Shown piece by piece: positions 4,731 to 59,555 of a stretch of DNA of 64,000 nucleotides; position 1 is the first letter of the stretch; the number at the start of each line of letters is the position of its first letter. The notes beneath the pieces are model-generated. The model worked only from the letters and a program-made list of their open reading frames with translations. It had not been told where the DNA came from and ran no database searches. This DNA is from Candidatus Zixiibacteriota bacterium (GTDB lineage Bacteria; Zixibacteria; MSB-5A5; UBA10806; 4484-95). The position numbers and the translations under genes were made by a program. The stretch covers positions 5,837 through 69,836 of the forward strand of contig JAOZPT010000001.1 in NCBI GenBank assembly GCA_029932605.1, written 5' to 3'.

Positions 4731-4762
4731 GCCTCCTTCACGCTGGGAGGCTTTTTTCGTTT
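4731..4762 (+). terminator. riboswitch expression-platform terminator
   Basis: GCCTCC-TTCACGCTG-GGAGGC hairpin followed by TTTTTTCG, about 35 nt upstream of the receptor start. Confidence 0.6.
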
Positions 4763-4795: not shown

Positions 4796-7318
4796 GTGAA
4801 AGGAGCTTTTATGCTAATCACAAAAACCAAGTTTGTATTGTTAGGGTTATTACTCTTAACAGTACCATCGTTTGGCGCATCCCTTACAGGTGTTGTCACC
4901 AACGCTGAAACGGGAACGCCTGTGGCCGGTGTGCTCATTAAAATAGCCGGCACAGACTTTACTAATGTCACCGATACCGATGGTAGGTTTTTCTTTTCGG
5001 GTTTGCCTGAGGGAAAAATAACCATTGTGGCAAGTGTGATAGGGTATGAAATCACTAAAAAAAGTCTTGATTTAAAGCAGACACAGAACATTGACATACC
5101 GCTCAAACCGAAGGTTCTGAAGGGCCAGGATATAATCGTTACTGCTACCAGGGCCGAGAAGGGGAAAACACCGGCCGCTTTTTCCAACATGGGAAACGAA
5201 GATATCAAACAGCTATACTGGGCTCAGGATACACCGGTTCTTTTATCGGTTCTACCAAGTGTTTTCGCCTACTCCGATGCCGGTAATGGTGTTGGTTATT
5301 CATACTTAAAGATTCGCGGTTTCGACCAGAAACGGATCTCGGTGATGTTAAACGGTATCCCTTTAAACGATGCTGAATCGCATGAGGTTTTCTGGATAGA
5401 CCTTCCCGATTTTGCTGCTAACGTTCAGGATATTCAGGTGCAAAGAGGAGTGGGGTCATCTCTTTATGGTGCTTCATCAATGGGTGGTTCGGTAAATCTC
5501 ATCACCAACGACTTTTCAGCCATCCCGCAGATAAAATTCCAGACAGGTTACGGCAGTTACGATACCAAGAAGCTGTCAATCTCTGGCAATTCAGGTTTGA
5601 TAAATGATTCATACGTCTTCTACGGTCGGTATTCGCGGATTGAAACCGATGGTTACCGTGACAACTCCTGGACGAAAATGTATTCTTATTTCATCGGGCT
5701 GGCTCGTTATGATGAGAACATGACCTTCAAATTCAACACCTATGGCGGGCCTGAAGAATCTCACCTTGCCTATAAGGGAATCCCTTTTGAAATGCTTGAT
5801 ACTCTCAGGAAATACAACGAACTGCAGTATGAGGACGAAATCGACCATTTCAACCAGCCCCATTATGAATTTATACATGATTGGGAAATCAATGATAATC
5901 TCGAGCTGGCTAATACGATTTACTATTTCCACGGTGAGGGTTATTATAACCAGAAAAGAAATAGAAAATATATTGAGGAGTATTTCCCGGAAATCCATTC
6001 GATTATGGTTTCTGACACAACACTTGCGCCACGAGATTATTATGACCTGGATGATTTGGGATATTTTGTAGTAGATACGTCAGGATTATATATCCTCGAG
6101 AAGGTCGATCTTGTGCGTCGACGCACTGTTAAAGAATACGATTGGGGTTGGATACCAAGATTGGCACTTAAGCACAACGATGGGATGTTCACTTTTGGCG
6201 GAGAGATGCGAATTCATTCAGGTCACCATTTTGGCGAGGTGAGATGGGCAAGCGTTTATCCAGCTGGATTAGAACCCAATTCCCGTTATTACGATTATCG
6301 TGGCCAAAGCAACACTTTTACCATCTTCGCTCACGAAACTTACAACTTGACCAGTAGGCTCATTATAATGGCTAATCTCCAGTATCAAAGGCATAACTAC
6401 AAGCTTGAGAATGACAAGCGGTTTAATGTGACATTTGATCGCGATTACGACTTTATCTCACCTCGTGGAGGCATTAATTATCAGGTCAATGAAAATGTCA
6501 ACGTTTTTGTCAATTTCTCAACGACCTCGCGTCAACCTGCTTTTAAGGATATTTACGACCCGACTGATTACTGGTCAAATCCGTATTACAAAACTAACAA
6601 TTTTAACGCATCAGGCGCTGACTGGGAATATGTTGGCATGGAGTTAAAACCGGAGAAACTTTTCGACTTGGAATTTGGTGCTGATTTTAGTAAAAGGACA
6701 GATAATTTGGTCTTTAAAGGTTCTCTCAACATTTATCGTATGCAGATTAACGATGAGTTGATACCGTATGCCGGTCAGATCGATGATAATGGTTATCCTA
6801 TTTCCGGTAATGCAGAAAAAACCATTCATCAGGGTCTAGAGTTATCTTTTGATGCACTTATGCATAGCGAGTTTTCATTAACAGGCAATCTGAGTGTTAA
6901 CGATGACCATTTTGAGTCCTACAAAGAATATGGATTTGATTGGGACATCTGGGAACCGATTGAATATGACCGATCGGATAAGCGAATAGGAGGATTCCCC
7001 AAGGCGATTGCGAATTATCGGCTGGGCTATATACTGAAGAATTTGGATTTTGGTTTAAGCGGAAGATATGTTGGGGAACAATATATCGATAACGGCGAGG
7101 AATACAAGGTCGATGCTTACCACGTTTTCAATGCGGACATTTCATATGATTTGGGAAGGCTAATCGGTTTTAATTCTATGAGAATCACTTTAAGGGCAAA
7201 TAACCTTGCCGATACGAAATACGAGCAAGCTGGTTACATTGAGGAGGATGATGGATTACCTCGTTACATGGTAGGTGCCGAACGCAACTTTTTTGTTTCG
7301 CTTAGCACCGAATTTTGA
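4796..7318 (+). CDS. TonB-dependent outer-membrane receptor with N-terminal carboxypeptidase-regulatory-like domain (probable thiamine or thiamine-precursor uptake)
   Basis: 840 aa. Has a signal peptide, a CarbopepD_reg-like segment (TGVVTNAETGTPVAGVLIKI ... DGRFFF), a plug region, a long beta-barrel, and the terminal aromatic residue (STEF). The start may be the internal M at MLITKTK. The upstream TPP riboswitch supports the substrate inference. Confidence 0.85.
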   Translation: MKGAFMLITKTKFVLLGLLLLTVPSFGASLTGVVTNAETGTPVAGVLIKIAGTDFTNVTDTDGRFFFSGLPEGKITIVASVIGYEITKKSLDLKQTQNIDIPLKPKVLKGQDIIVTATRAEKGKTPAAFSNMGNEDIKQLYWAQDTPVLLSVLPSVFAYSDAGNGVGYSYLKIRGFDQKRISVMLNGIPLNDAESHEVFWIDLPDFAANVQDIQVQRGVGSSLYGASSMGGSVNLITNDFSAIPQIKFQTGYGSYDTKKLSISGNSGLINDSYVFYGRYSRIETDGYRDNSWTKMYSYFIGLARYDENMTFKFNTYGGPEESHLAYKGIPFEMLDTLRKYNELQYEDEIDHFNQPHYEFIHDWEINDNLELANTIYYFHGEGYYNQKRNRKYIEEYFPEIHSIMVSDTTLAPRDYYDLDDLGYFVVDTSGLYILEKVDLVRRRTVKEYDWGWIPRLALKHNDGMFTFGGEMRIHSGHHFGEVRWASVYPAGLEPNSRYYDYRGQSNTFTIFAHETYNLTSRLIIMANLQYQRHNYKLENDKRFNVTFDRDYDFISPRGGINYQVNENVNVFVNFSTTSRQPAFKDIYDPTDYWSNPYYKTNNFNASGADWEYVGMELKPEKLFDLEFGADFSKRTDNLVFKGSLNIYRMQINDELIPYAGQIDDNGYPISGNAEKTIHQGLELSFDALMHSEFSLTGNLSVNDDHFESYKEYGFDWDIWEPIEYDRSDKRIGGFPKAIANYRLGYILKNLDFGLSGRYVGEQYIDNGEEYKVDAYHVFNADISYDLGRLIGFNSMRITLRANNLADTKYEQAGYIEEDDGLPRYMVGAERNFFVSLSTEF

Positions 7319-7334: not shown

Positions 7335-8729
7335 ATGGGTCAGAAACATTATGGTATAGAGAGCGCAATCCTGCTGATAGCGTATCTGGTATTTCTGCTG
7401 ATAGTGGGATTGCGCCTTTTTAAACGAGGGAAATCTGATGCTGATGATTATCTGGTCATGGGGCGACGGCTATCGCTTCCAGCATTTATCGCCAGCATCG
7501 TTTCCACCTGGTATGGTGGTATCCTTGGTGTTGGCGAGTATTCATACAGGCATGGTCTGTCCAACTGGTTGGTTTTTGGTTTGCCTTATTATTTATCTGC
7601 ATTTCTGTTTGCTGTATTTTTGGCTAAAAAAGCTCGGCGAAGCTATCAGCATACAATCCCCGACCAGCTTGATAAAACCTATGGAAAGACTGTCTCTGTT
7701 ATCGGGGCGGTTTTTGTATTTGTAACGACTGTGCCGGCAGCCTATGTCCTACAACTGGGTGTGCTGGCAGAAACAGCCTTCAATATACCTTTAACAATTG
7801 GTGTTGTCGGTGGAACTCTTTTTTCGACCATTTATATCTTTAGCGGGGGATTGCGTGGTGATGTCTTTACCGACAAGGTTCAATTTGCACTCATGTTCAG
7901 TTGTTTTGCTGTTATGGTTGTTGTGCTTATTTCTCGGTTTGGTGGTCTTTCTTTCCTTGAAACCAACCTTCCCGAATCTCATCTTATCTGGAGAGGTTCC
8001 AAGCCGGCATCGTATATATTCGTCTGGTATTTCATTGCCCTGGCAACTCTGGTTGAACCATCTTTCTATCAGCGTTGTTTTGCAGCCAAAAGCGAGAGGG
8101 TTGCCAGAAACGGGATTTTTGTCGCCATCGCTTTCTGGGCAATATTTGATTTTATGACCACCGCTACTGGTATGTATGCCCGGGTTTTGCTACCTGATTT
8201 AGCCAACCCGATAGCGGCCTACCCGGCTTTGGCGGTTCGTATACTACCGCGTGCTCTCCAGGCGGTGTTTTTGCTCGGTTTATTTGCTACTGTGATGTCC
8301 ACCGTTGATTCATACACATTCATTGCCGGTGCAACCGTAGGCAAAGATATCATCTGGCGACTTAAAGGAGGAGACATCACAAAAAACAGCCGATGGGGAT
8401 TGGTGGTTTCAGGAATACTGGCAGTAGTTATAGCTTTGTTTTTCCGCTCGGTTATCGATATCTGGTATTTATTTGGCACACTGGGCACCTGTGCCCTTTT
8501 GATCCCACTTGCCTCGTCGTTTTCGGAAAAATGGCGTATGACCCCAAAAATGGCGGCTATGTCCATGATATTTTCACCTCTGGTAGCCCTTATATGGATT
8601 GTACCAAATCTATTTCTCGGTATAAAATATTTCTGGGGCATCGACCCCATATATCCGGGACTTTTGACGTCAGTTATAATATACATTTTCAGTTGCAATA
8701 TAAAGAATCATTTCCACAAGCCCTTTTAG
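7335..8729 (+). CDS. sodium:solute symporter family (SSF) transporter, ThiV/PanF-like
   Basis: 464 aa, polytopic. Has the N-terminal SSF signature DDYLVMGRRLSLPAFIASIVSTWYGG. It lies 16 nt downstream of the receptor, so is probably co-transcribed under the riboswitch. Confidence 0.75.
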   Translation: MGQKHYGIESAILLIAYLVFLLIVGLRLFKRGKSDADDYLVMGRRLSLPAFIASIVSTWYGGILGVGEYSYRHGLSNWLVFGLPYYLSAFLFAVFLAKKARRSYQHTIPDQLDKTYGKTVSVIGAVFVFVTTVPAAYVLQLGVLAETAFNIPLTIGVVGGTLFSTIYIFSGGLRGDVFTDKVQFALMFSCFAVMVVVLISRFGGLSFLETNLPESHLIWRGSKPASYIFVWYFIALATLVEPSFYQRCFAAKSERVARNGIFVAIAFWAIFDFMTTATGMYARVLLPDLANPIAAYPALAVRILPRALQAVFLLGLFATVMSTVDSYTFIAGATVGKDIIWRLKGGDITKNSRWGLVVSGILAVVIALFFRSVIDIWYLFGTLGTCALLIPLASSFSEKWRMTPKMAAMSMIFSPLVALIWIVPNLFLGIKYFWGIDPIYPGLLTSVIIYIFSCNIKNHFHKPF

Positions 8730-8813: not shown

Positions 8814-10103
8814 ATGTTAAATAGGCACTTCTTAACGACAATATTATCAAAGAGAACATTTAACAGATTTAAAGATGAAAAAATAAAAAGGCTTATTGAA
8901 AACTTCTTCTCCCTATCCGTTCTTCAGGTGGTAAACTATATTTTACCGCTTGTTACACTGCCATATTTGGTGAGGGTATTAGGTGCTGAGAAGTTTGGTC
9001 TGGTCATGTTTGCCAACGCCTTTATTCAATATTTTATTATGCTCACGGACTACGGGTTTATTCTGTCGGCCACCAGGGAGATATCTGTTCACAGGGAGGA
9101 TATAAAGAAAGTTTCGGAGATTTTCACCTCGGTTATGATAATAAAAATGGTGTTGTTTCTTGTAAGTTTGATTATCTTGTTTGGTATCGTATTCAGTTTC
9201 GATAAGTTCAGAAATGATTGGCAGTTATATTTTTTAACATCGGGCATGATTTTGGGTAATATTTTATTTCCGATATGGTTCTTTCAGGGTATGGAAAGGA
9301 TGAAATATATAACCATTTTAAATATTACGGCCAAAACGATATTCACAGTCTTAATATTTGTTTTTATAAGAAATCAAGGTGATTACATATATGTACCGGT
9401 TTTCAATTCTTTAGGTTTTATAACGGCTGGCATTTTATCTTTTTGGATAGTAATAAAATATTTTAAGATCCGTTTATATCTACCCAAAATTTCTCGAATA
9501 TACAGTTACTTTAAAGATAGCACTCAATATTTTCTTTCGAGGGTTTCAGTATCAGTATATACAAGTAGTAATACTTTCGTTGTCGGATTATTTTTGGGTA
9601 ATACCGCAGCCGGATATTATTCTGCAGCCGAGAAGCTATTTTTGGCCTTAAGGATGGCATATACTCCTTTGAATACAACTTTATATCCATACATGTGCAA
9701 TACTAGAAACCTGAGATTGTATAAAAAGATATTCCTGCTGGCGTTTATCGTGAATTTAGCGCTGTGTTCTTCAATATTTCTATCCAGCGGGTTTATCATC
9801 GGCCTGCTTTATGGAGAAGGTTTTCAGGTAAGCGTAAAATTACTGCAGATGTTTTCAATACTGGGTCTTATAATAGTTCCTTCCATCTTGCTTGGATATC
9901 CCCTGCTGGCGGCTTTAGGCCATCCTAAATATGCAAACATGAGCGTCATAGTCGCTTCTGTATTTCATTTAATTATGTTGATGTTGATAATTCCCATAAT
10001 CAAAATTTATTTCGTAGTCATAATAGCTATGATAACAGAAACCGTAGTGCTTCTGATCAGAGTCTATGGTATAAGAAAACATAAACTATGGAGAACTAGA
10101 TGA
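8814..10103 (+). CDS. polysaccharide/teichoic-acid-type flippase (Wzx-like, MOP superfamily)
   Basis: 429 aa with about 12 predicted TM segments. The Polysacc_synt-like N-terminus (LSVLQVVNYILPLVTLPYLVRVLGAEKFGLV) is present. Confidence 0.7.
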   Translation: MLNRHFLTTILSKRTFNRFKDEKIKRLIENFFSLSVLQVVNYILPLVTLPYLVRVLGAEKFGLVMFANAFIQYFIMLTDYGFILSATREISVHREDIKKVSEIFTSVMIIKMVLFLVSLIILFGIVFSFDKFRNDWQLYFLTSGMILGNILFPIWFFQGMERMKYITILNITAKTIFTVLIFVFIRNQGDYIYVPVFNSLGFITAGILSFWIVIKYFKIRLYLPKISRIYSYFKDSTQYFLSRVSVSVYTSSNTFVVGLFLGNTAAGYYSAAEKLFLALRMAYTPLNTTLYPYMCNTRNLRLYKKIFLLAFIVNLALCSSIFLSSGFIIGLLYGEGFQVSVKLLQMFSILGLIIVPSILLGYPLLAALGHPKYANMSVIVASVFHLIMLMLIIPIIKIYFVVIIAMITETVVLLIRVYGIRKHKLWRTR

Positions 10104-10783
10104 AAGCAGTTATCCTTGCCGCGGGTATGGGCTTACGAATTGGGAAACCTGTTCCCAAAGCTCTTTTAGAATTACCATCAGGGGAAAGCATTTTGAGCAG
10201 ACAGGTTAGAATTTTTAAATCTGAGGGGATAGAGGATATAAGCGTCGTTGTGGGGTATAAAAAAGAACTGATCATGTCCCACATTCCTGATGTGCGGTTT
10301 ATATTCAATCCCGAATACAGAAATACGAATACCGCTAAAAGTCTTTTGTGCGCGTTGGAGGGAGTAGAGGATGATATTATATGGGCAAACGGGGACCTCG
10401 TTTATGATGAAAACATTTTAACATTGTTAAAATCGCAAAGGTTTAATACAATTGTCGTTAACAATGCTAAATGTGGTGAAGAGGAGGTTAAATATCTTGT
10501 GGATAAAAGTGGTAATGTTATCTCTATTTCCAAGGAAATTGAAAATGGCCAGGGTGAGGCGTTGGGAATAAATTTGATTAAGAAGAAGTCGATTAAAGTA
10601 TTTATTGAGGCGTTAAATGAATGTAAGGACACTGATTTTTTCGAAAAGGCTATACAGATTTTGATCGATAGGGGGGTAATCTTTAAACATCTCGATGTGT
10701 CTGATTACAGATGTATTGAGATTGATTTTGAAGAGGATTTGAACAGGGCTTTGATTTTATTTGGTCAGAATGGTAGAAATTGA
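10100..10783 (+). CDS. LicC-like sugar/alcohol-phosphate cytidylyltransferase (NTP_transferase fold)
   Basis: 227 aa. MKAVILAAGMGLRIG ... PKALLEL at the N-terminus. The whole protein lines up with CTP:phosphocholine cytidylyltransferase LicC-like enzymes. Its start overlaps the flippase stop (ATGA), suggesting translational coupling. Confidence 0.7.
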   Translation: MKAVILAAGMGLRIGKPVPKALLELPSGESILSRQVRIFKSEGIEDISVVVGYKKELIMSHIPDVRFIFNPEYRNTNTAKSLLCALEGVEDDIIWANGDLVYDENILTLLKSQRFNTIVVNNAKCGEEEVKYLVDKSGNVISISKEIENGQGEALGINLIKKKSIKVFIEALNECKDTDFFEKAIQILIDRGVIFKHLDVSDYRCIEIDFEEDLNRALILFGQNGRN

Positions 10784-10886
10784 AATCGCTATCAACCGAA
10801 AATTTATATTTGATTTCAAAAAGACATATTTGTTCGGGAGAAAACCAAATTCCCTATGAAAACGATGGTAAACAGCATACTGAAAA

Positions 10887-12107
10887 TTGATAATGAAAGT
10901 TTTTAGAAGAACGATCACGCTTATAAAATGGCTTTTGGGGAGCATTATATATCTTATTTCATATTTAGTACCCAAGGATAAAAATCTCTGGGTTTTCGGA
11001 GCCTGGTTTGGCGATAAATATTCTGATAACTCGAAATATTTTTTTGAGTATATGAATAGAGCTCATCCCGAAATAAAAGCGGTCTGGCTGACCAACAACG
11101 ATAAGGCTTTAAGATTGGTCAAGAACAAGGGTTTTGAGGTTTTAAGAACATACAGCTTAAAGGGGACCTGGTGCTCGATGCGGGCGACAGTAGGAATACT
11201 TTCAACATGGGTAAACGATATAAATAGATATACGATTTCAAAAACGCGTTTAATACAGTTGTGGCATGGTTCGCCGTTAAAAAAAATAGGCTATGATGAT
11301 AAAATTTCTATTGAGAAGGAATTGCTGATTAAAAGGGTTGTTACAAGGTTGTTGCCGTTCTTGAAAAAGGGTTTAGAGATAAATATGATAATGGCTGCTT
11401 CTTCTAAAGTGCAAGGGATACTATCCGGAGCGTTCAGGGTTTCCAAAAGCAATGTAAAAATAACAGGATATCCTAGAAACGATGTTTTCTTTATGGAAAA
11501 CACCGAGAATTTTCCTATAAAACAGAAACTTCTAAAACTCAAAAATTGTTTTAAAATCGGTATTTATCTTCCCACACATCGCCAGAAAGGAAATATCGAT
11601 ATCGCTTCAATGTTTCTTGATACCATTGATGATGTAAACTCAAGATTAAAAAAAATTAATGTGATTCTTCTGGTAAAATATCATTATTATCATCTGAGAT
11701 CTCTTAAGGACAGGTTGGCAAGTTATTCGAATATCATTTTTTTAAGCGATGATGATATTAATCAGGATATCTATCCTGTCCTGCCGCTGGTTGATTTTTT
11801 GATTACTGATTATTCAAGTGTTTATTTTGATTATTTACTGACGGATAAACCTATAATATTTGCTCCATTTGATATGAGGCAGTATGTGAAGGATGATAGA
11901 GAGCTTTATTTTGACTATGATGAAGTGACACCTGGTGCCAAAGCCACAAATTGGGATGAGCTTATATACTTTATAGACAGAGCAATCAAATACCCCGATG
12001 AATATAAACCGCAAAGAGATAAAATCAGGAGGATTTTCAATCAATATGACGACGGAAATAGTAGCCAGAGAGTCTTCGATGAGGTTATAAAATACACTCA
12101 CTCTTGA
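10887..12107 (+). CDS. CDP-glycerol/CDP-alcohol glycerophosphotransferase family protein (TagB/TagF-like)
   Basis: 406 aa. The C-terminal motif ITDYSSVYFDYLLTDKPIIFAPFDMRQYVKDDRELYFDYDEVTPG is typical of the Glyphos_transf (TagF) family. Confidence 0.75.
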   Translation: MIMKVFRRTITLIKWLLGSIIYLISYLVPKDKNLWVFGAWFGDKYSDNSKYFFEYMNRAHPEIKAVWLTNNDKALRLVKNKGFEVLRTYSLKGTWCSMRATVGILSTWVNDINRYTISKTRLIQLWHGSPLKKIGYDDKISIEKELLIKRVVTRLLPFLKKGLEINMIMAASSKVQGILSGAFRVSKSNVKITGYPRNDVFFMENTENFPIKQKLLKLKNCFKIGIYLPTHRQKGNIDIASMFLDTIDDVNSRLKKINVILLVKYHYYHLRSLKDRLASYSNIIFLSDDDINQDIYPVLPLVDFLITDYSSVYFDYLLTDKPIIFAPFDMRQYVKDDRELYFDYDEVTPGAKATNWDELIYFIDRAIKYPDEYKPQRDKIRRIFNQYDDGNSSQRVFDEVIKYTHS

Positions 12108-12138: not shown

Positions 12139-12582
12139 GTGTTAGATGTTTTTGAGATGTTAAAAAGTCTAACAATATGTTTGTGTTTGGTGGTCATTAT
12201 CATAAGTTGCAATTCTCAACCATCACCGAAGGATGTGACTTTTGAGTTCATTGCTGCTGTATTGGATGGAGATACAACTACTATTTTGCAATATTTAGAT
12301 CTTGAGCGGATGGCTGAAAGAAAGATGAAGGATATTGTTTTAAAAGATAGTATCCTTAACCCCGCTGACTTTAAAGCGGAAATCCTTAGTGAGCTTACCG
12401 GCCTTGGGCAAACCCGTAATCAATGGAAAAATCAAAGGATTTTGGTTAACAAAGAGATTGTCAGAGGGGATTCTGCCGAGGTGGAGATGACTTTTATTGA
12501 CCAGTTCACGGGCACGATCAAATACTCGATGGTTTACCTTCATCATAAGGATAACCGCTGGTTGGTTTATTTCTATAAATGA
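12139..12582 (+). CDS. hypothetical lipoprotein
   Basis: 147 aa. Signal peptide with lipobox-like IISC. Confidence 0.45.
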   Translation: MLDVFEMLKSLTICLCLVVIIISCNSQPSPKDVTFEFIAAVLDGDTTTILQYLDLERMAERKMKDIVLKDSILNPADFKAEILSELTGLGQTRNQWKNQRILVNKEIVRGDSAEVEMTFIDQFTGTIKYSMVYLHHKDNRWLVYFYK

Positions 12583-12908
12583 GAACGATAATTATCCTCA
12601 CCGGTTCCTTTCTTTCAGCAATTTTACTTGTTGCCATTGTCGATATTTATGTTCCCGACCACTCGGTGATGGTTATCCCTCTGATGGTTATATTTTTTGT
12701 AATCTGGATGGTTGGATTCGGTTATGCCACTGTTCCTGAGAATCTCAAAAAAAAGACCATTGCAGTTTTAATAATCGAGGGTTTGGCTTTAGCTGTAACT
12801 GCCGTTTACTTTATCATCAGCATTGGATTTGAACCAAAATATATATTCGGTTTAACGCTGGGAGTTGCCTCTTTGATAATAATGATTCTGTTAAGAGAGA
12901 AACGTTAA
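12579..12908 (+). CDS. hypothetical small membrane protein (3 TM)
   Basis: 109 aa. Three hydrophobic helices. Start overlaps the previous gene by 4 nt. Confidence 0.4.
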   Translation: MRTIIILTGSFLSAILLVAIVDIYVPDHSVMVIPLMVIFFVIWMVGFGYATVPENLKKKTIAVLIIEGLALAVTAVYFIISIGFEPKYIFGLTLGVASLIIMILLREKR

Positions 12909-12910
12909 CG

Positions 12911-14227
12911 TTATTTTAAATAAGTCACTTTTGCCGTGGATGATTGGTTTTTCTGCAAAGCGAAATTACGGCCAGAAATTTTTATAAAATATATTCCAGA
13001 TACCAAATTTTCAGGATTCCATACAATAGAGTAACTTCCGTTCTCGAAAACACCTTTTTCAAGGTTAGTAACAAGTTTCCCATTGATGTTATAAATATCC
13101 AGTGAAATTGATGTTACCCTAGCAATCTCGAATCTGATTGTAGCTGCAGAATTAAATGGATTGGGATAACAACCGGTTATCTTGAAACTTACCGGCAGTA
13201 AATTATTGTTGTTATCGATGCTGTTTATATAACTAGGTAGAAGAACAAACAATGAATCGCCATCGGCTAATAACAGGTAGTCGCCATAAACAGCACTTCC
13301 GCGTGCTGTATTAGGACTATCGAATATTGCCAGCAATGAAGGATTCAAAGGGTTATTGACAGAAACAGCGATAAGGCCTCCTGTGTCATCGGCAAGATAG
13401 GCAATTGTATCGGATATAGTAACCCTGTTTAAATAACCCGGGGTGTCGAATGTCGTCAGGCTATCCGGGTGTAAAGGGTCGTTTAAATCAAATATGACCA
13501 TCCCCTCTTGCCCGCAGGCCAAATACAGGTTTTCTGCGGTCATGGTGATATCCGAACCTCCCGTATCGAGTCTGAATGAATCTAAGAGAACCGGATTTAT
13601 CGTATCGGCAAGAGAATATGTTAAAAGCCCGTAATCCTGGTCAGCGATATAAATTGTAGTGCCATTTACCGCAACCGATGCTGTATATCCAAATGGCGGG
13701 ATATATCCCACCTGTTGCGGATTGGAGTTATCTGTGACATCAAGTATGACCAGACCATTGAGAAAGTCAGCTACATATAACAGATTTTCGTATAAAAACA
13801 GATCTATAGTGGTGCCAAGGGTATTGAAAGCTCCAATTGAATCAGGGGAAGCTGGTTGAGACAGGTCAACGATTGTCACTCCTCTGTTCCAGTGGGCAAG
13901 GTAGGCGATGTTATCTGAAACGATGATATCATTTACGAAAGCATCGTCAAAGTATGAAGAGACGTAAATGGGCACTTCAGGTATAACGATATTGAATATC
14001 GAAAGGCCGGCATCACCATCGGCAACCAAGGCGACATTGTCATATATCGCCACAGATTGGGCCTGCCCGGGAGTGTTTGTTACACCGATTACATCGAATT
14101 GCCAGTCATACTGGCAGAATGTTACTGTTGATAATAATAATATCAGTATAGTTGCAGTTGTCGGTAAATTCCGCATAAAATTACCCATATTAAAAACTTG
14201 CAAATAATATACCTGTTGTAAATACAT
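12911..14227 (-). CDS. LVIVD-repeat beta-propeller protein with T9SS C-terminal sorting domain
   Basis: 438 aa. Signal peptide, then repeated L-x-I/V-x-D-like blades (LVILDVTDNSNPQQ, VTIVDLSQPASP, MVIFDLNDPLHP, LIAVSVNNPLNP). C-terminal YPNPFNSAATIRF ... GIYFIKI matches the Por secretion-tail pattern. Confidence 0.7.
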   Translation of the reverse strand: MYLQQVYYLQVFNMGNFMRNLPTTATILILLLSTVTFCQYDWQFDVIGVTNTPGQAQSVAIYDNVALVADGDAGLSIFNIVIPEVPIYVSSYFDDAFVNDIIVSDNIAYLAHWNRGVTIVDLSQPASPDSIGAFNTLGTTIDLFLYENLLYVADFLNGLVILDVTDNSNPQQVGYIPPFGYTASVAVNGTTIYIADQDYGLLTYSLADTINPVLLDSFRLDTGGSDITMTAENLYLACGQEGMVIFDLNDPLHPDSLTTFDTPGYLNRVTISDTIAYLADDTGGLIAVSVNNPLNPSLLAIFDSPNTARGSAVYGDYLLLADGDSLFVLLPSYINSIDNNNNLLPVSFKITGCYPNPFNSAATIRFEIARVTSISLDIYNINGKLVTNLEKGVFENGSYSIVWNPENLVSGIYFIKISGRNFALQKNQSSTAKVTYLK

Positions 14228-25258: not shown

Positions 25259-25681
25259 TTAATGCAGGTGTTTGGAGATCAGTTTAGTCATCTCGAACAT
25301 GCTGACTTTACCCTTGCCACCGAAAATCTTTCTCAGTTTATCATCAGCATTGATCATGGTCCTTTTGAACCTATCCTGTAGTCCGTGCTTTTTAATATAC
25401 GCCCAAATCTTTTTAGTGACCTGAGTCCTGGGTAGGGGCTTACTTCCGACGATTGCACTGAGTGCTAAGCTGGGTGTCCATGGCCTCATGAAAGCTGGAT
25501 TTGGTTTGCGTTTGGCTTTCTTTTTTGCTACTTTCTTCTTAGCTACTTTCTTTTTCGCTACTTTCTTCTTAGCCTTTTTTTTCTTGGCAACTTTTTTCTT
25601 GGCAACTTTTCTTTTTGTAGCTTTTTTCTTTGCTACTTTTTTCTTAGCGGTTTTCTTCCTGGCCTTTTTCTTCGCTGGCAT
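25259..25681 (-). CDS. SWIB/MDM2-domain protein with N-terminal lysine/alanine-rich histone-H1-like repeats
   Basis: The likely true start is MPAKKK (ATG 25681..25679), with AGGAGAGG upstream. About 13 tandem (V/A)AKKK(K) pentapeptide units are followed by LSAIVGSKPLPRTQVTKKIWAYIKKHGLQD ... MFEMTKLISKHL, which matches the SWIB/MDM2 fold. The ORF track extends the start to 25750. Confidence 0.7.
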   Translation of the reverse strand: MPAKKKARKKTAKKKVAKKKATKRKVAKKKVAKKKKAKKKVAKKKVAKKKVAKKKAKRKPNPAFMRPWTPSLALSAIVGSKPLPRTQVTKKIWAYIKKHGLQDRFKRTMINADDKLRKIFGGKGKVSMFEMTKLISKHLH

Positions 25682-26198
25682 ACGCCTCTCCTGGTTAAAG
25701 GTTAGTAGTTGGTTTACAAAATTTCTCTCTCGATTAAGACTCCAATCCACAACTTATTCTTCAAGAAATAGAAAACTCTACCAATCCTGCAACATTGTAG
25801 GAGTAAATTGCGAAACATTTCAAATAAAAATTATGATTTTTTTAAAAAATTACATTATAAAAATGGATTTTAATTACAAATAATTTTATAATATGATATT
25901 TAATAATGATAATCCAAGTTTTTATCAAATAGTACAAGTTGTAATTTTTCCGTATATAGAAGGAGGGCTATTCAAAAGATGAGCATATTTGTACAAAATT
26001 ATATTCAAATAGAATTATCTTTTACCTGATTTATTAGACAGCAAGATGGTATAAATAGATTTGGTTTTATATAGATTTTAAAAACCTTCTCTTGATATGA
26101 TTCTTGTTTGGAAGTATCTTTTATGAAGCTGGGTTTTTTAATAGCCTGTATCGTCCAAACAGAAGTTGGGATTGACGATAATGGTAAGAGGATAAATC

Positions 26199-28362: not shown

Positions 28363-28767
28363 TTATTTTGTTCCCACCAACAGCACGCCACCAAGTATAA
28401 GGACCAATCCGATCCATTTGGTCAAGGAAAAAGGCTCTTTGAACATAAAAAACGAGACCAGTATAATGGCTCCGTAGGCAAGACTTGTGACAATGGGGTA
28501 GGCTATCGAGATGTCAATTTTTGATAAAAGCACCATGTAACCCCCGACAGATGATACATAGCAAAAAAGTCCAACCAGCACAGCTATATTTGTGAATATA
28601 CGGGAAAAGTTCGTAAGGAAAGCTGTGGGCGTGATAGCACCCAATTGATTCATCCCGATTTTTAAAAAGACATGGCCGCAGATGTTAAAAGTAACAACGA
28701 AAAGCATTACCATATAGCGGGACATTTCAGGCTCCTTTAAAAGAAAAGATTCTAAATTTGTTAACAC
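28363..28767 (-). CDS. small EamA/SMR-like 4-TM protein (ArnE/ArnF-like candidate lipid-linked sugar flippase subunit)
   Basis: 120-134 aa depending on start (probable start MSRYMVML at 28725). Four hydrophobic helices with DMT/EamA-like spacing. Confidence 0.5.
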   Translation of the reverse strand: MLTNLESFLLKEPEMSRYMVMLFVVTFNICGHVFLKIGMNQLGAITPTAFLTNFSRIFTNIAVLVGLFCYVSSVGGYMVLLSKIDISIAYPIVTSLAYGAIILVSFFMFKEPFSLTKWIGLVLILGGVLLVGTK

Positions 28768-28858
28768 TCCATAGAGATATTTTGATTGGGCTGATAAGTG
28801 TATTATAATGTATTTTTACGATGATGAACATGATGCTTGTATATTGGTTTCATGTTTA

Positions 28859-29944
28859 CTAATATTTTTGAAAGAGCTGGCCCCAATCTGTTTCTTTCAG
28901 CCATTTATTAAAAATCTTTTTACCCTTGGTTGGATACCACAATTTATCATGGAAAAGAGCAGAGGCAAAAACGAATATATAAACGATAGGAGTGTGAAAC
29001 ATAAGTTTCTGGAGTACCTTAAGAGGAGAGAACCATAAAATATCACCTACTTTCGAGGCCATGTTATCACCGACCGAAAAGCCGAAATTCATCTTCGAGA
29101 TATCCTCACCGATGATCTCTATTTGACTTACATCGCCACAGCCTAAGCCGGCATCGTGTCCCATTCTTATATATTTAATTGACATTGGTTCAAACCCCAT
29201 GATTTTGGTGGCGACTGCATCTATAGCTACTTGGTCGGCAGAGGCGAGGATGATATCTTTTTTGTGTGGCGTCATTGTCCGCGGTCCAGGTCCCGAGCCG
29301 GCTGTTGTACCATCCATGAAACAGAAAATACCTGAATGTATCTCTTTTTGAATTTGCAAAAGGTCAACCAGGGTCTCGTGTATAACAGAGTGGGTGTAAT
29401 GGCGCTTGGTATTTAAAAGACCACCGAAAGCATTTTTCATAGCGCCGGTAGTGGTCGTGTAAATATGAGTTTTTACGGTGGGTAGGTGGACGATGTTTTT
29501 TCCTATGAAAAATTCAGGTATCTTTATACCCCTTGAGAAAATCTTGTCTAAAACGAGCATCTTTGCTTTTGGTTTATATTCTATCCATTTTAAATCGGAT
29601 GGGTCGTTGTTATATCTTTCAGGGATAGAATATTTTTCATATACTGGTTTTAGTTTGAGGAGCTTACCGCCGGTATAGGGATTAGTAACCACGGTATCAT
29701 TGTGAACTGCTACAATATCAGTAATACCGGCTTTTTTTAGGGCTTTAATTGTTCCCTCGACTTGCCAGGGAACTGAGTTTGCACCTGGAAACGGCAGATG
29801 CCACGAGATATTGTCTTTTAAAATGGTTGTATTATCAGCCACCAGAGAATCCTTCAATCCGGCAACCTGCCCCGCCCTTATATAGTCATCTATAACTTTA
29901 TCAGGAGAGGTTTTTAATACAGCGACTTTTGTTTTACTGCTCAT
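28859..29944 (-). CDS. DUF362-domain protein
   Basis: 361 aa. KVAVLK at the N-terminus, LPTVKTHIYTTTTGAMKNAFGG, DGTTAGSGPGPRT and ASADQVAIDAV match the conserved DUF362 blocks. Confidence 0.55.
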   Translation of the reverse strand: MSSKTKVAVLKTSPDKVIDDYIRAGQVAGLKDSLVADNTTILKDNISWHLPFPGANSVPWQVEGTIKALKKAGITDIVAVHNDTVVTNPYTGGKLLKLKPVYEKYSIPERYNNDPSDLKWIEYKPKAKMLVLDKIFSRGIKIPEFFIGKNIVHLPTVKTHIYTTTTGAMKNAFGGLLNTKRHYTHSVIHETLVDLLQIQKEIHSGIFCFMDGTTAGSGPGPRTMTPHKKDIILASADQVAIDAVATKIMGFEPMSIKYIRMGHDAGLGCGDVSQIEIIGEDISKMNFGFSVGDNMASKVGDILWFSPLKVLQKLMFHTPIVYIFVFASALFHDKLWYPTKGKKIFNKWLKETDWGQLFQKY

Positions 29945-30822
29945 ACTTTACCCTCAAACTGTAAAATAATTAAAACAGTGGTTATCCATAGTGCCACACA
30001 TATTAAAAGGGGTATGTCCGTAACAAGTAATTTTGTGGGATTGCCTCCCTGCTCTTTCTGGTGGATAAGATACAGATATCTGAATATCCCATAGAGCACA
30101 AACGGCACTGTTAGAACTAGATTACCTGTCCCTAACTTTTCCTTTACATCAGGTGAAAGGGTGTAAAATGTGTACGCCACCACGGTGGAGGCGGTAACCA
30201 CACTTATCATTTGGTCTAAAAAATATTTTGAATAATGTGCCAACGATTGCCGGTGCGAAACGGCTCCGTTTCCAAGAATCTCCAGTTCATGTCGTCTCTT
30301 GGAAAATCCTAAAAAGAGGGCTAAAAGAATTGTACATACTAAGAGCCAGGCCGAGATCGGCACTTCTATAGCGGCCGCTCCAGCAACGGCCCTTAGTACA
30401 AAACCCAGCGCCAAGCTCATGACGTCTATAATAACCACATTTTTCAAACCTATGTTGTAAGCTAGATTTAAAATGATATAGATACCAAGATAAATCATAA
30501 ATGTTAAACCCAGGGAATAACCGACCAGTATACTGAGAGCAAGTAGAAATAAGATGGTTATAGAAGCTGTTTTTACAGGGAGTTGGCCTGATGCTATCGG
30601 TCTGTATTTTTTGGTTGGATGATGCTGGTCTTTGCTGAGGTCTGTGATATCGTTGACATAATAAATTGCCGATACGGCGAAGCAGAATGCCAGAAACCCT
30701 TTTATAGCCAGCATCACCGAGATGGGTTCGCTATATTTTTTGGCAAATATTAAAGCTGCAAATACAACGAGGTTTTTAACCCAGTGATGAGGCCTAGCGG
30801 TTTTGATGATAGCACTAAGCAT
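29941..30822 (-). CDS. UbiA-family polyprenyl-phosphate 5-phosphoribosyltransferase-like (decaprenyl-phosphate phosphoribosyltransferase homolog)
   Basis: 293 aa, about 8 TM helices. N-terminal ARPHHWVKNLVVFAALIF and the Asp-rich motif YYVNDITDLSKDQHHPTKKYRPIASGQL parallel Rv3806c-type DPPR synthases (NDxxDxxxD ... HPTK.xRPIA). Confidence 0.7.
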   Translation of the reverse strand: MLSAIIKTARPHHWVKNLVVFAALIFAKKYSEPISVMLAIKGFLAFCFAVSAIYYVNDITDLSKDQHHPTKKYRPIASGQLPVKTASITILFLLALSILVGYSLGLTFMIYLGIYIILNLAYNIGLKNVVIIDVMSLALGFVLRAVAGAAAIEVPISAWLLVCTILLALFLGFSKRRHELEILGNGAVSHRQSLAHYSKYFLDQMISVVTASTVVAYTFYTLSPDVKEKLGTGNLVLTVPFVLYGIFRYLYLIHQKEQGGNPTKLLVTDIPLLICVALWITTVLIILQFEGKV

Positions 30823-30997: not shown

Positions 30998-31963
30998 TTA
31001 TAGTTCTTCTTTATCGTTGTTGGATAATGGATTTTTATCAAAATTTATTTCACGTGTTTTTCCGAAATTAATGGTGAATGAAAAGAAATGCGTCTGGCCT
31101 AAGTCCTGGCCGGGGTTGAATGCATAATCGATACGTCCCCACATGAACTTTAGCCCGGCACCAAAATTAACCATGTTAGATTGGTTATCGATACCGAGGT
31201 CACCAAGACCTGTTCTTAAGTTTAAGGCATTGCCCAGATTGTATTCCATTCCAGCGGAAAAGCTTGTTTCACCTGTAAATGCTACTTTTGTTCCCACCAT
31301 CATCGTTATAGGAATATTTATGGGGCTGAAAGAACTACCAACGGAGACCGAGGAGGGAAGCTTGTAGCTCTGCTCATCATATTTAACTTTGGGGCCAAGA
31401 TTATTAACAACGAAACCGAACGTAAATGTATTAATCAAATATTGAATTCCCATATCCAGAGCATAACCAGAGGCTTTAATATCTGCCAACTTTTCCTCTA
31501 TGTATTTCCCGCTTAGGCCAAGGTATAAAGCTCCTGACAATCTCCGGCTATAAGAGGCGATTGCCGTTAAACTATAAGGTCTGATACTTCCATATTGCTG
31601 GTCATACATATTGTAAGTATCGATCTGTCCCATGTGAAGATAAGAAGCTGATACTCCGATTGTTGAGTTGGTTTTCATGGGAATAGCTACAGCTATAAAT
31701 TCATATGATATATCCTGAAGCCATGAATTGTGCATAAAATTTAAGCCTGGTTGCTCAATTGAAGATAAACCAGCTGGATTGAAGTATGTTGAGGCTATGT
31801 CATTACTTATCGCCCAGCTTGCTCCACCCAAAGCAGCATGTCGAGCAGATACACTTATGTTTAGGAAATCTGCGGAGGTAATACCTCCAGCGGTAGCTGT
31901 ATTTATTAGGGTAATGCTCAGTATTATCGTAATAATAGAAATAAATTTCATTTGTTTTATCAT
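30998..31963 (-). CDS. PorV/PorQ-family outer-membrane beta-barrel protein (T9SS-associated)
   Basis: Start chosen at MIKQMKF (GGAGGG 7 nt upstream), giving a signal peptide. The ORF track starts at 32041. ARHAALGGASWAISNDIASTYFNPAGL is the hallmark N-terminal motif of PorV/PorQ-like proteins. It ends in an aromatic-rich beta-barrel C-terminus. Confidence 0.6.
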   Translation of the reverse strand: MIKQMKFISIITIILSITLINTATAGGITSADFLNISVSARHAALGGASWAISNDIASTYFNPAGLSSIEQPGLNFMHNSWLQDISYEFIAVAIPMKTNSTIGVSASYLHMGQIDTYNMYDQQYGSIRPYSLTAIASYSRRLSGALYLGLSGKYIEEKLADIKASGYALDMGIQYLINTFTFGFVVNNLGPKVKYDEQSYKLPSSVSVGSSFSPINIPITMMVGTKVAFTGETSFSAGMEYNLGNALNLRTGLGDLGIDNQSNMVNFGAGLKFMWGRIDYAFNPGQDLGQTHFFSFTINFGKTREINFDKNPLSNNDKEEL

Positions 31964-32371
31964 TAGAACACCCTCCTCTGATGATGGAATATGCAAATGA
32001 TATGCCATCAAGCAGACCCCCCTGGAGGTTGTTTGTAACATATTCTGTTACAACAAGATAAATGTTGCACCAAGATAACAGTTAGTCGGGGTGTTTGGGA
32101 TGTATTTGGTTTAATATTTTGGCAATAATTAAGAACTAATGGCATTTTTAAAGACACAATCCTTTTGAACCTTATAACTCATTGATACTTATGGTGTTCA
32201 AGCCCTTTATCAAAACGATTTTTACTTGCTTAATTGTTGAACAAATCCATCTTTTGAACATATTTTTTTACTATCATGGTTATTGGTTAAAGTCAATAGT
32301 TAATTTATAAAACTCCCCAATTTTACCGGAAATACAATTATAGAAATGTAAGCATGGCGGTGTGTAATCAT

Positions 32372-56132: not shown

Positions 56133-57095
56133 TTGCCAGAGCTTGAGATAATAAAAGCGGATAAGACCCAATATCGAAACTGGGTTACTTCGGAACAACT
56201 TGATTTTTCAGGCTCGATATTTTATCACCCCGATTTTCTGGAGGTCGCCGCTGATATTTTAAACCTGCAGTTTAAACCGCTTATTTGCCTGTCATCGGGG
56301 AAGTTAACTGGTATCGTAAACCTCCTTATCGGCAACAGATTTAATGTCAAAACCGCTCTGATACCAAGGCTTTTCCAATATTATGGACCTGTGGCTATTG
56401 CCGGTAATACCGACGTCTTTGAATACGTAACAAAAACAATCGAGAATGAAATTGACACGGCTGTTTTTTCTATCAGGCCGGAGGAAAGTTTAAAGCCTGA
56501 TTTGTGCGGTTGGCATTTAAAAAATCGACTGACCTATTATCTTAGACCGGATACATTTGAAAATATGAAAAGCGATTGTTTTCCTGATGTAAAAAATAAA
56601 ATCAATAAGGCTGTAAAGGTTGGAATCAAGGTTGAGAACATCTCGCAATTTCCATATGAAATTTATCAGGCAAGCTTCAAAAGACAAAGAGCCACACCCC
56701 CTCTTGGAAAAGAGCTTTTGTCAGTTTGGGTGGAGCGTTTAACGAATTTGAATCTGGCCGCAACTTTTATCGCTGTCTTTGAGGGCAAACCAGTGTCCTT
56801 CAGGACCCAGCTTGTTTGGGGTGGTTATGCTTATGATTGGTTGGCGGGAGCTTATCCTGATTATAATCATCTCGGTGTAAATCAACTTCTAATTTTGAAA
56901 ATCGGTGAACAGTTTTATCGCAAAAGTGTTAAAAATTGGGACCTGCTTGGTGGAGATATTAAATCGATAGCTGGTTTTAAAAGATCTTTTGGCTCAATCC
57001 CCAAAACACATGTTCAGCTTGAAAAAAATTTCAGTATGAAAGGCAGAATTTACCGCTTGTTGATGAGGTTGAAAGCGGGTTTGAGACGTTTTTAG
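56133..57095 (+). CDS. FemAB-like / GNAT-fold acyl- or aminoacyl-transferase (EPS-locus type)
   Basis: 320 aa, TTG start. Size and layout are like FemAB-related proteins found next to CE4 deacetylases in exopolysaccharide loci (e.g. PEP-CTERM-associated subfamilies). Confidence 0.45.
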   Translation: MPELEIIKADKTQYRNWVTSEQLDFSGSIFYHPDFLEVAADILNLQFKPLICLSSGKLTGIVNLLIGNRFNVKTALIPRLFQYYGPVAIAGNTDVFEYVTKTIENEIDTAVFSIRPEESLKPDLCGWHLKNRLTYYLRPDTFENMKSDCFPDVKNKINKAVKVGIKVENISQFPYEIYQASFKRQRATPPLGKELLSVWVERLTNLNLAATFIAVFEGKPVSFRTQLVWGGYAYDWLAGAYPDYNHLGVNQLLILKIGEQFYRKSVKNWDLLGGDIKSIAGFKRSFGSIPKTHVQLEKNFSMKGRIYRLLMRLKAGLRRF

Positions 57096-57099
57096 TTTT

Positions 57100-58476: not shown

Positions 58477-59555
58477 ATCCATTTGATTATGATTCGCGGG
58501 CGCAGTTGATTTGCCATGACATACTATCCTCAGGCTGGCGTCTTGATATAATCGCTACAATCGGTGGCAAGATTCCATCGTTTGGGAATGCTGATATCCA
58601 TCGATTGCCCCAGCCGGTCTGGCCGACAAGGAAAAGGCGGTTTATTGAATACAACATTAGGGCGACCTCATTGGCAAAGAGATTAAGAGCTGACATTTAC
58701 CATGCGGTTGACCTTGATACCCTGTGGGCGGCGGTTAATGCGGCAAGGGCTGTGGGGGGAAAAGTGGTTTATGAATCGCGTGAGTTATATACCGAGCTTA
58801 TGTCCTTATCTGGAAGGCCTATCGTTAGAGCGTTCTGGAGCATTCTTGAGAAAAAGTTAATCCGGAAGGTCGATGTTGTGGTGACGGTAAATCAGGCTAT
58901 CGCCGAGGAGATGACGAAACGTTATAGAATAAATCCACCGGAGATTGTAATGAATGTGGCTCGATCAGGGGAATCCATCGAACCAATTGACCTTCGTAAA
59001 GAGTTTAACCTTCAAAGTAAATTCGTATTGATTTTCCAGGGAATTTTACGGCCGGGGCAGGGAATACTCAGAGCTATCGAGTTGATAGTATATCTTCCTG
59101 AGGTTAGCCTTGTGTTTATAGGGGATGGTCCGTTAAGGGATACTATCGAAAAAAGGGCAAATGATCTTGGTATCAGTAACCGTGTGCGGATTGCTGGAAA
59201 GATTGAACCCGGTCGGTTGGCACATTATACCAGTGGTGCCGATGCCGGTTTGATTTTGATAGAACCGGTAGCATTGAACAATCGTCTGGCTCTACCTCAA
59301 AAGCTTTTCCAGTATATCTCTGCTGAAACGCCGCCCATAGTCTCCGACCTTCCCATGTTGCGGCAGATAGTGCAGGAAGATAAATTGGGCTTGGTGTTGA
59401 AAGATGGTTTACCTAAAGAAAGTGCCGAGGCCGTACGTGATTTTTTGAACAACGGGCTTGAAATGGCTATCGGCCAGTGCCGTATAGCAAAAAGGAAGTA
59501 TTGCTGGGAAATCGAGGGCAAGAAGTTTATTAACTTGTACAGGAATCTCGTTTGA
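58440..59555 (+). CDS. family-4 glycosyltransferase (GT4, GT-B fold)
   Basis: 371 aa. C-terminal EPVALNNRLALPQKLFQYISAETPPIVSD matches the GT4 EX7E-type region. TTG start overlaps the previous gene. Confidence 0.7.
   Translation: MEKPLHIVFFILNPFDYDSRAQLICHDILSSGWRLDIIATIGGKIPSFGNADIHRLPQPVWPTRKRRFIEYNIRATSLAKRLRADIYHAVDLDTLWAAVNAARAVGGKVVYESRELYTELMSLSGRPIVRAFWSILEKKLIRKVDVVVTVNQAIAEEMTKRYRINPPEIVMNVARSGESIEPIDLRKEFNLQSKFVLIFQGILRPGQGILRAIELIVYLPEVSLVFIGDGPLRDTIEKRANDLGISNRVRIAGKIEPGRLAHYTSGADAGLILIEPVALNNRLALPQKLFQYISAETPPIVSDLPMLRQIVQEDKLGLVLKDGLPKESAEAVRDFLNNGLEMAIGQCRIAKRKYCWEIEGKKFINLYRNLV

Follow-up and report, generated by a model that had tools for sequence, protein, structure and literature searches.

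Organization of the cassette

Herein we describe a three-gene cassette within a 64-kb stretch of DNA (hereafter the window; contig JAOZPT010000001.1, positions 5,837 to 69,836), derived from a metagenome-assembled genome (MAG) of the Zixibacteria (FCB group). The cassette encodes a flippase, a nucleotidyltransferase (NT) and a TagF-like transferase, and the analysis below favors, with a probability of about 0.58, its function as a glycerol-phosphate tagging system for a Wzx-dependent surface glycan. The host had been regarded as a Bacteroidota-like lineage in an earlier note on this DNA; proteins sharing 100% identity with the NT come from MAGs of Candidatus Zixiibacteriota or candidate division Zixibacteria. 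The features of the cassette are as follows.

8814..10103, + strand: Wzx-type flippase (MOP superfamily, Polysacc_synt), 429 aa, PF01943
10100..10103, + strand: ATGA start/stop overlap of Wzx and NT (NT ATG at 10100-10102, Wzx TGA at 10101-10103)
10100..10783, + strand: NT of the LicC/PntC fold (COG1213-type), predicted CTP:glycerol-3-phosphate cytidylyltransferase, 227 aa, PF12804
10893..12107, + strand: single-domain TagF-like protein (Glyphos_transf, glycosyltransferase B (GT-B) fold), predicted CDP-glycerol:glycan glycerophosphotransferase, 404 aa, PF04464
11262..11282, + strand: W124-H125-G-S-P128-L129-K130 of the TagF-like protein, with predicted base histidine, stacking tryptophan and 'PL' motif (TagF alignment)
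11682..11684, + strand: H264, second predicted catalytic histidine of the TagF-like protein (TagF alignment)

A check with Pfam hidden Markov models (HMMs) bore out the presence of three linked genes with strong matches to PF01943, PF12804 and PF04464, and the ATGA overlap pointed out in the earlier note proved to be real. The name 'CDP-alcohol phosphotransferase' used there for the third protein belongs to a different family and had to be abandoned in favor of GT-B-fold Glyphos_transf. Public gene callers start this third gene at ATG 10893 (404 aa), and TTG 10887 is an alternative start (406 aa). The overlap of the first two genes suggests their translational coupling. The same 4-bp start/stop overlap was also found in homologous loci of the same lineage (L092 and L094), of Desulfurobacterium crinifex (L095/L096, as TTGA) and of an Acidobacteriota MAG (L097), and because of this recurrence it can be regarded as a conserved arrangement rather than a chance juxtaposition.

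Catalytic residues and donor loop of the TagF-like protein

The TagF-like protein matched PF04464 across profile positions 2-366 of 367 (E=8e-70, 236 bits against a cut-off of 22.1), and its residues 33-398 were aligned with residues 355-714 of TagF from Staphylococcus epidermidis, the best match in the PDB (E=6e-24). In this alignment, H125 (in LWHGSPLK) is paired with the catalytic base H444 of TagF and H264 (in KYHYY) with H584, a correspondence made explicit by the mutant structures 3L7J (H444N) and 3L7M (H584A), and the segment around H125 lines up with W443-H444-G-T-P447-L448-K. A 30-sequence family alignment showed H264 to be invariant and W124, H125, P128 and L129 to be at least 90% conserved. 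Both histidines were reported to be essential in a cryo-electron microscopy study of TarL (H300 and H433) (PMC10901376). The doubt voiced in the earlier note, that the conserved catalytic positions might be lacking, is thus answered by the presence of both histidines.

According to the same study, the donor loop tells the two kinds of transferase apart: 'PL' marks TagF and TarF, which transfer glycerol-phosphate, and 'GAF' marks the ribitol-phosphate enzymes, a rule that has exceptions among the TagB/TarB primases (PMC10901376). The loop of the window protein, WHGSPLK, is of the PL and not of the GAF type. CDP-ribitol was rejected as the donor on the grounds that no TarJ- or TarI-type gene was found in the window and that the loop reads PL instead of GAF. 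The pathways of CDP-choline and CMP-2-aminoethylphosphonate were also considered; the Pfam search of the 50 open reading frames (ORFs) of the window gave no match to the LicA-type kinase, LicD, choline-kinase or phosphoenolpyruvate (PEP)-mutase families.

About 30 residues, including a hydrophobic segment at positions 7-26, precede the GT-B domain. The additional N-terminal domain borne by the polymerases (PMC10901376) is absent from the window protein, which therefore does not qualify as a TagF/TarL-type polymerase, and the matches to the capsule polymerases Bcs3 and Cps3D were weak (3e-12 and 5e-8, respectively). The best NCBIfam match was TarF (NF041712), with a score of 143 bits that lies far below the equivalog cut-off of 550. 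On these sequence features, the protein is predicted to share the function of the TarF-type glycerol-phosphate transferases, although it is not an ortholog of TarF.

Family and predicted fold of the nucleotidyltransferase

The NT matched NTP_transf_3 (PF12804) with 55.5 bits against a cut-off of 27 (E=1e-14). Its nearest solved structures in terms of sequence were PntC (1e-10), LicC (3e-9) and IPCT (6e-6), all ahead of GlmU, and a family profile ranked PntC (6e-18) and LicC (1.5e-14) before a sugar-1-phosphate enzyme (1.2e-10), IPCT (1.4e-9) and GlmU (1e-7 or weaker). An AlphaFold model of the protein (pLDDT 94) was superimposed on PntC with a TM score of 0.87, on LicC with 0.85 and on IPCT with 0.77-0.80; the sugar-1-phosphate enzymes GlmU and ST0452 also reached 0.80-0.84. 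Profiles and fold thus place the NT with the alcohol-phosphate and phosphonate cytidylyltransferases, as the earlier note had proposed, only loosely ahead of the sugar-1-phosphate enzymes. Five residues that do not vary across the family, G9, G11, R13, K20 and D99, make up the GxGxR...K signature and the acidic metal-site residue; their counterparts R16, K26 and D112 have been cited as critical for IMPCT and CpgD. T76-N77-T78, E128-E129-K131-Y132 and E153 are likewise invariant among the family members and might lie in the pocket for the head group. By sequence and modelled fold, the window NT is accordingly classed as a COG1213/LicC-fold cytidylyltransferase.

Since the NT shares only 21-25% identity with any characterised member, including PntC and LicC (the latter approximately 21%), its substrate is not transferable by homology. 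The known substrates of COG1213 enzymes are phosphocholine, phospho-sugars, inositol-1-phosphate, phosphoglutamine and phosphoglycerate, and promiscuity occurs among these enzymes. The public names of the NT homologues are inconsistent, ranging from 'phosphocholine cytidylyltransferase family protein' and 'choline kinase' to 'UDP-N-acetylglucosamine pyrophosphorylase', 'L-glutamine-phosphate cytidylyltransferase' and '4-diphosphocytidyl-2C-methyl-D-erythritol synthase', and the gene context supports none of them. The features of LicC proper are not found either, as neither LicA nor LicD occurs among the window ORFs and the partner of the NT is a TagF-like protein. The NT gave no match to TIGR01518 (TagD/TarD), and what we propose is functional analogy with TagD, not membership in its family; in NCBIfam, no family exceeded its cut-off for the NT or for Wzx.

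Homologous loci point to CDP-glycerol as the donor

An alignment-based scan of metagenome contigs yielded 80 loci with TagF-like homologues, the ORFs of which were searched with HMMs of the window NT family and of the TagF family and with a TagD probe; a scan of genome contigs with the single TagF-like protein had given 3 loci, and was replaced by this metagenome scan together with individual look-ups of homologues. A TagD-like gene was present in 36 of the 80 loci, often directly adjacent to the gene of the TagF-like protein, and the TagF-like proteins linked to TagD have the WHGxPLK loop in common with the window protein. An NT of the window type, defined by a score of 275 bits or more to the family HMM, occurred in 7 of the 80 loci, and none of these 7 contained TagD (hypergeometric P=0.012). 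When the count was confined to the 25 loci that extended at least 2.5 kb to either side, TagD was present in 16, a LicC-fold NT alone in 7 and neither in 2.

The order NT-GpsA-TagF-like was observed in five loci (L012, L040, L043, L095 and L096), four of them independent, with GpsA being of the NAD(P)H glycerol-3-phosphate dehydrogenase type. GpsA was also encountered on the TagD side: an ORF of about 450 aa at L021:403-1758, beside the genes of a TagF-like protein and Wzx, was confirmed against NCBIfam as a GpsA-TagD fusion, and the TagD-like ORFs of about 450 aa in L019, L048, L050, L070, L073, L074, L080 and L090 are, judging from their length, probably similar fusions. When distinct NT homologues were sampled individually, seven of eight adjoined a Glyphos_transf gene. 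Besides the window, this held for D. crinifex, Oleidesulfovibrio alaskensis G20, Maridesulfovibrio frigidus, the Acidobacteriota MAG and two other MAGs.

The PL motif, the occurrence of TagD in homologous loci, the mutual exclusivity of NT and TagD and the NT-GpsA-TagF synteny together indicate that the donor is most likely CDP-glycerol. The earlier note had held the donor to be unreadable from the sequence; comparative context and the published motif make it inferable. The simplest reading of the loci is that the window NT would fill the slot of TagD. A LicC-fold CDP-glycerol synthase of this kind would amount to a non-orthologous replacement undescribed in the literature searched, which ascribes the TagD (COG0615) fold to the known enzymes.

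Flippase and recurrence of the cassette across phyla

The flippase matched PF01943 with 216 bits against a cut-off of 28.2 (E=6e-64), and a hydropathy scan detected seven hydrophobic stretches, several of them long enough for two helices, as expected for a member of the Wzx/MOP group. Flippases of the Wzx/Wzy pathway handle short lipid-linked units.

The gene order Wzx-NT-(GpsA)-TagF with the 4-bp overlap recurs within glycan clusters of Aquificota and Acidobacteriota. In the cultured Aquificota member D. crinifex, Bac_transf is followed by Wzx, NT, GpsA, TagF-like, glycosyltransferase and rml genes in turn, and the proteins are 58% (Wzx), 50% (NT) and 52% (TagF-like) identical to those of the window; in an Acidobacteriota cluster of the O-antigen type with Wzy_C and Wzz, the corresponding values are 56%, 57% and 32%. 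The Wzx-TagF pair persists even where another cytidylyltransferase occupies the slot between them, as in L009, L021 and L022. The locus closest to the cassette outside the Zixibacteria in terms of the TagF-like protein (L009:7249-9954; Wzx 63% and TagF 59% identical) has in this slot an NT of another clade, which shares 28% identity with the window NT and finds its best Pfam match in PF00483; an AsnB-type amidotransferase is encoded just before it. An NT similar to that of L009, followed by GpsA, is present in L055. In L021 and L022, where Wzx is 50-52% identical, the slot is taken by TagD or the GpsA-TagD fusion. A locus of the same species as the window (L004:4039-4791) has the TagF-like gene split into ORFs of 111 and 99 aa, which may represent a frameshifted or pseudogene variant or an assembly error.

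With its occurrence in Aquificota, Acidobacteriota, Desulfobacterota and many metagenomes, the cassette is not rare, which refines the remark in the earlier note that such a decoration is uncommon in Bacteroidota-like lineages. A broader reading spans these three phyla and the Zixibacteria. It takes the NT as one of a widespread, uncharacterised group of LicC/PntC-fold glycerol-3-phosphate cytidylyltransferases that would have displaced the TagD fold in many environmental diderm phyla. The cassette would then be a self-contained, horizontally mobile unit that puts glycerol-phosphate on surface glycans otherwise unrelated to one another, and its co-translated Wzx, unusually conserved at 50-63% identity across phyla, would be specialised for glycerol-phosphate-bearing units. 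We regard this reading as tentative, its chances falling somewhat short of even.

Proposed pathway

In the pathway that we propose, sn-glycerol-3-phosphate would be drawn from the housekeeping pool or, where GpsA is encoded, formed by it from dihydroxyacetone phosphate. The NT would join it with CTP to give CDP-glycerol, a task normally carried out by TagD/TarD. The membrane-anchored TagF-like protein, with H125 as the base, would then move glycerol-phosphate from CDP-glycerol to a hydroxyl of the glycan with release of CMP; for this step, family and catalytic residues are evident from the alignments and the substrate is putative. The acceptor would be an oligosaccharide on the cytoplasmic side of the membrane, carried by a lipid that is presumably undecaprenyl diphosphate. 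The co-translated Wzx would finally flip the decorated unit across the inner membrane, where it would be polymerised or ligated by enzymes encoded elsewhere. The expected product is a glycan of the O-antigen or exopolysaccharide type that bears anionic glycerol-phosphate through a phosphodiester bond, either as a substituent or within the chain. The general scheme of the earlier note, a CDP-activated head group made by the cytidylyltransferase, transferred as a phosphodiester by the TagF-family protein and handled on its glycan by Wzx, is supported by the tests run, as far as sequence comparison can tell.

Several observations weigh against this pathway. In this genome, no glycosyltransferase, initiating transferase, Wzy or ligase gene adjoins the cassette, and gpsA is absent from the window cassette itself. 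We infer the substrate of the NT from gene context, and the characterised glycerol-3-phosphate cytidylyltransferases are all of the TagD (COG0615) fold according to the literature searched, in which nothing relevant was found on a COG1213/NTP_transf_3 enzyme acting on glycerol-3-phosphate. Aquifex AQ1368 was considered as a LicC-fold example and rejected, as it belongs to the TagD-type family (PMC8262930); AQ185 belongs to the FAD-synthetase family (PMC8262930). The TagD counts given above depend on the TagD probe, four of whose matches were checked against TIGR01518 (cut-off 165.4 bits), giving 209.5 bits for L047, which passes, approximately 160 for L021 and L022, and approximately 96 for L032. 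The NT homologue of Orenia, 52% identical, has no TagF-like neighbour: in Orenia metallireducens (L008:8001-11825), the NT is followed by Phosphodiest (PF01663), ATP-grasp, HAD hydrolase, NeuB and CMP-sugar synthetase genes, and a Phosphodiest gene precedes the NT in L040 too. At L071:6354-9228 and L079:254-3079, members of the same NT family occur with WHGCSIK-bearing TagF-like proteins beside MptE-like/DUF115 genes, which we take to be Maf-type flagellin-glycosylation genes; at L100:5823-9069, the NT likewise lies beside an MptE-like gene and the TagF-like protein keeps WHGIPLK. The NT family may thus have no single substrate, and these last three loci hint at another donor or at a protein-glycan target, perhaps resembling that of Clostridioides difficile CD0242/CD0244. 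Lastly, processivity of the transferase is not readable from the sequence.

Alternative explanations

The same architecture could serve another head group, with the NT activating a different small phospho- or phosphono-compound and the TagF-like protein transferring it. The candidates, which we take jointly, are 2- or 3-phosphoglycerate (as for CpgD), phosphocholine (LicC), 2-aminoethylphosphonate (PntC) and a phospho-amino acid (C. difficile CD0242). PntC and LicC are indeed the closest solved relatives of the NT, yet at an identity as low as that given above, and the breadth and promiscuity of COG1213 enzymes would accommodate such a substrate. There is a precedent in CD0244 (TagF-like) and CD0242 (NT), which have been proposed to transfer phosphothreonine, and some members of the NT family stand in contexts that are not glycerol-like. 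Phosphoglycerate, like glycerol-3-phosphate, requires no dedicated kinase, which fits the missing precursor genes; for the choline and phosphonate routes, no LicD, choline-kinase or PEP-mutase match was obtained among the window ORFs, and aminotransferase-family matches occurred only in other loci. The symporter and the TonB-dependent receptor encoded next to the cassette could import a precursor, but their linkage to it is restricted to the Zixibacteria. What speaks for glycerol is that GpsA lies directly 3' of the NT in the five loci (four independent) listed above, that NT and TagD exclude each other in the same slot, and that the transferase bears the PL glycerol motif. Another head group is, in our estimation, unlikely.

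The glycerol-phosphate pathway might instead end in a true teichoic-acid-like polymer, namely a poly(glycerol-phosphate) built processively on a lipid anchor or, with a glycosyltransferase taking part, a poly(glycosyl-glycerol-phosphate). Gram-negative pathogens do have TagF-like capsule polymerases with products of this kind, and the best PDB match of the window protein is itself the polymerase TagF; the window protein, however, consists of the GT-B domain alone, whereas the characterised polymerases have the extra N-terminal domain, and it resembles the multi-domain Bcs3 and Cps3D only weakly. Neither a TagGH- or KpsMT-type ABC exporter nor TagO, TagA or TagB was detected by the Pfam scan of the window ORFs, and the conserved partner is Wzx, a flippase for short units. 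We thus consider this polymer to be quite unlikely. Given the Wzx linkage, the missing polymerase domain and the missing ABC exporter gene in the window, we consider it likelier, on the gene content, that a repeat unit flipped by Wzx receives one glycerol-phosphate or a few than that a teichoic-acid polymer is made. Main-chain glycerol-phosphate followed by Wzy polymerisation would still yield a teichoic-acid-like product, and the data fit both cases. The earlier note had predicted either a decoration or a short poly(alcohol-phosphate); the single or short addition is the part that is favored here, and a long teichoic polymer is not. That the three genes are merely adjacent and have no joint function is highly improbable: they do lie outside a glycosyltransferase cluster here, among transport and housekeeping genes, but gene order and overlap recur in three phyla, seven of eight NT homologues sit beside a TagF-like gene, and the Wzx-TagF pair is kept even with other cytidylyltransferases in the slot.

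Comparison with known systems

The glycerol-phosphate tagging cassette proposed here shares parts with several characterised systems. Staphylococcus aureus TarF and the TagF proteins of S. epidermidis and Bacillus subtilis resemble the TagF-like protein in the GT-B Glyphos_transf fold, the histidines, the stacking tryptophan, the PL motif and membrane association, and the size of the window protein is that of TarF (approximately 390-400 aa); they differ in that the identity is approximately 25-30% and that the N-terminal domain of TagF is lacking. Their context consists of TagO/TagA/TagB/TagGH and TagD, whereas the window represents a diderm with Wzx and a predicted LicC-fold donor enzyme. Without TagO, TagA, TagB and TagGH in the window, the cassette is not a wall-teichoic-acid pathway, and without LicA and LicD in the window it is not a LicC phosphocholine pathway. 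As stated in the earlier note, the window has no LicA-type kinase and no TagD/TarD-like gene; for the latter, neither a Pfam domain nor a match to the TagD probe was found among the 50 window ORFs.

TagD/TarD (TIGR01518, COG0615) catalyses the reaction that is predicted for the NT and takes the same slot beside TagF-like proteins, sometimes fused to or beside GpsA, but its fold (HxGH/RTxGISTT) is unrelated to the GlmU/LicC-type fold of the NT. LicC, PntC, IPCT, CpgD and Cj1416 (phosphoglutamine) are alike in fold (TM 0.77-0.87), in signature and in their class of small, non-sugar phospho-substrates. The NT differs from these COG1213 relatives in having a TagF-like partner rather than LicD or DIPPS, and in a context that indicates glycerol-3-phosphate, a substrate unreported for this fold in the literature searched.

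The pneumococcal Wzx/Wzy capsules (gct or gtp1-3 plus wchX) likewise combine a CDP-glycerol pathway with a glycerol phosphotransferase and bear pendant glycerol-phosphate; they differ in the Gram-positive host and the full cps locus. Pneumococcal Gtp2 is also a non-TagD nucleotidyltransferase, but for glycerol-2-phosphate, and needs Gtp1 and Gtp3, both of which are lacking here. The group 2 capsule polymerases (Cps3D/Cps7D, Bcs3 and Campylobacter jejuni HS:1) provide the TagF-like chemistry with CDP-glycerol or CDP-ribitol in diderms, but are large, multi-domain enzymes with ABC export and a TagD-type supply. The flagellin Type A glycan of C. difficile, made with CD0242/CD0244, is similar in pairing a LicC-like NT with a TagF-like protein and in the phosphodiester-linked head group on a sugar; it differs in the proposed CDP-threonine donor, the flagellin-linked GlcNAc acceptor and the lack of Wzx, while the window has the PL motif and Wzx.

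Neighbouring genes and other features of the window

The genes flanking the cassette are listed below.

4796-7318, + strand: TonB-dependent receptor, co-directional upstream neighbour (Pfam)
7335-8729, + strand: sodium:solute symporter (SSF family), co-directional upstream neighbour (Pfam)
12139..12908, + strand: two small downstream genes, encoding a 147-aa probable lipoprotein and a 109-aa four-transmembrane protein

The receptor and symporter genes are 17 bp apart. A hairpin scan found a strong terminator-like hairpin at 4731-4751, just upstream of the receptor gene, and weaker ones within genes, for example at 7685-7715, 8483-8496 and 10689-10722; none lay in the gaps between the receptor, symporter and cassette genes, and these genes are therefore possibly co-transcribed, the promoter and terminator scan being suggestive only. 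The synteny with receptor and symporter is kept in two relatives within the Zixibacteria, L092 (91/85% identity) and L094 (91/81% identity), whose TagF-like proteins are 85% and 71% identical, respectively, to that of the window. As a head-group-import part of the module, receptor and symporter were rejected, being linked to it only within the Zixibacteria and not in other phyla. The 147-aa protein resembles a lipoprotein (lipobox IISC) and weakly matches DUF4878, and its gene has a 4-bp overlap with the 109-aa gene; both genes are conserved in L092 and kept only within the Zixibacteria lineage.

The remainder of the window is mostly housekeeping (TsaD, glycolysis/gluconeogenesis enzymes, ValRS, PriA, iPGM, Lnt and others), and the other glycan-type genes of the window occur only at 56133-62009, approximately 45 kb away; for these reasons, the trio can be called an 'orphan' cassette. 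The distant genes (56133-62009, + strand) encode an Acetyltransf_6 (FemAB-like) protein, a 458-aa ORF without Pfam match, GT4 and GT2 glycosyltransferases and a PMT_2/ArnT-like GT-C membrane glycosyltransferase, and could be related to the acceptor glycan. A run on the - strand at 28363-30822, encoding a small EamA/TMEM234-like membrane protein, a DUF362 protein and a UbiA-family prenyltransferase, could serve another lipid-carrier or glycolipid function. Type IX secretion is represented by an LVIVD-repeat protein with a C-terminal sorting domain of that system (12911-14227, - strand) and by a PorV-like outer-membrane protein (30998-32041, - strand). A SWIB/MDM2 domain, which is uncommon in bacteria, was recognised (E=5.5e-27) in the 163-aa protein encoded at 25259-25750 on the - strand.

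Significance

Wzx-dependent glycans bearing glycerol-phosphate are already established, as are TagF-like enzymes of Gram-negative bacteria, and since the underlying chemistry is known, the present finding is incremental. What is mildly new is the predicted LicC-fold CDP-glycerol synthase, and the cross-phylum conservation of the co-translated Wzx deserves note. Enantiopure CDP-glycerol is commercially unavailable, which restricts the use of TagF-like polymerases (PMC8262930); if the assignment is true, thermostable enzymes, such as that of Desulfurobacterium, might be possible tools for its chemo-enzymatic synthesis. The NT family would then offer a candidate second, LicC-fold route to CDP-glycerol, and its automatic annotations would have to be corrected. 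The literature searched held nothing relevant on teichoic-like glycans in the Zixibacteria; for this uncultured sediment lineage, the cassette would mean that a surface polysaccharide is decorated with anionic glycerol-phosphate.

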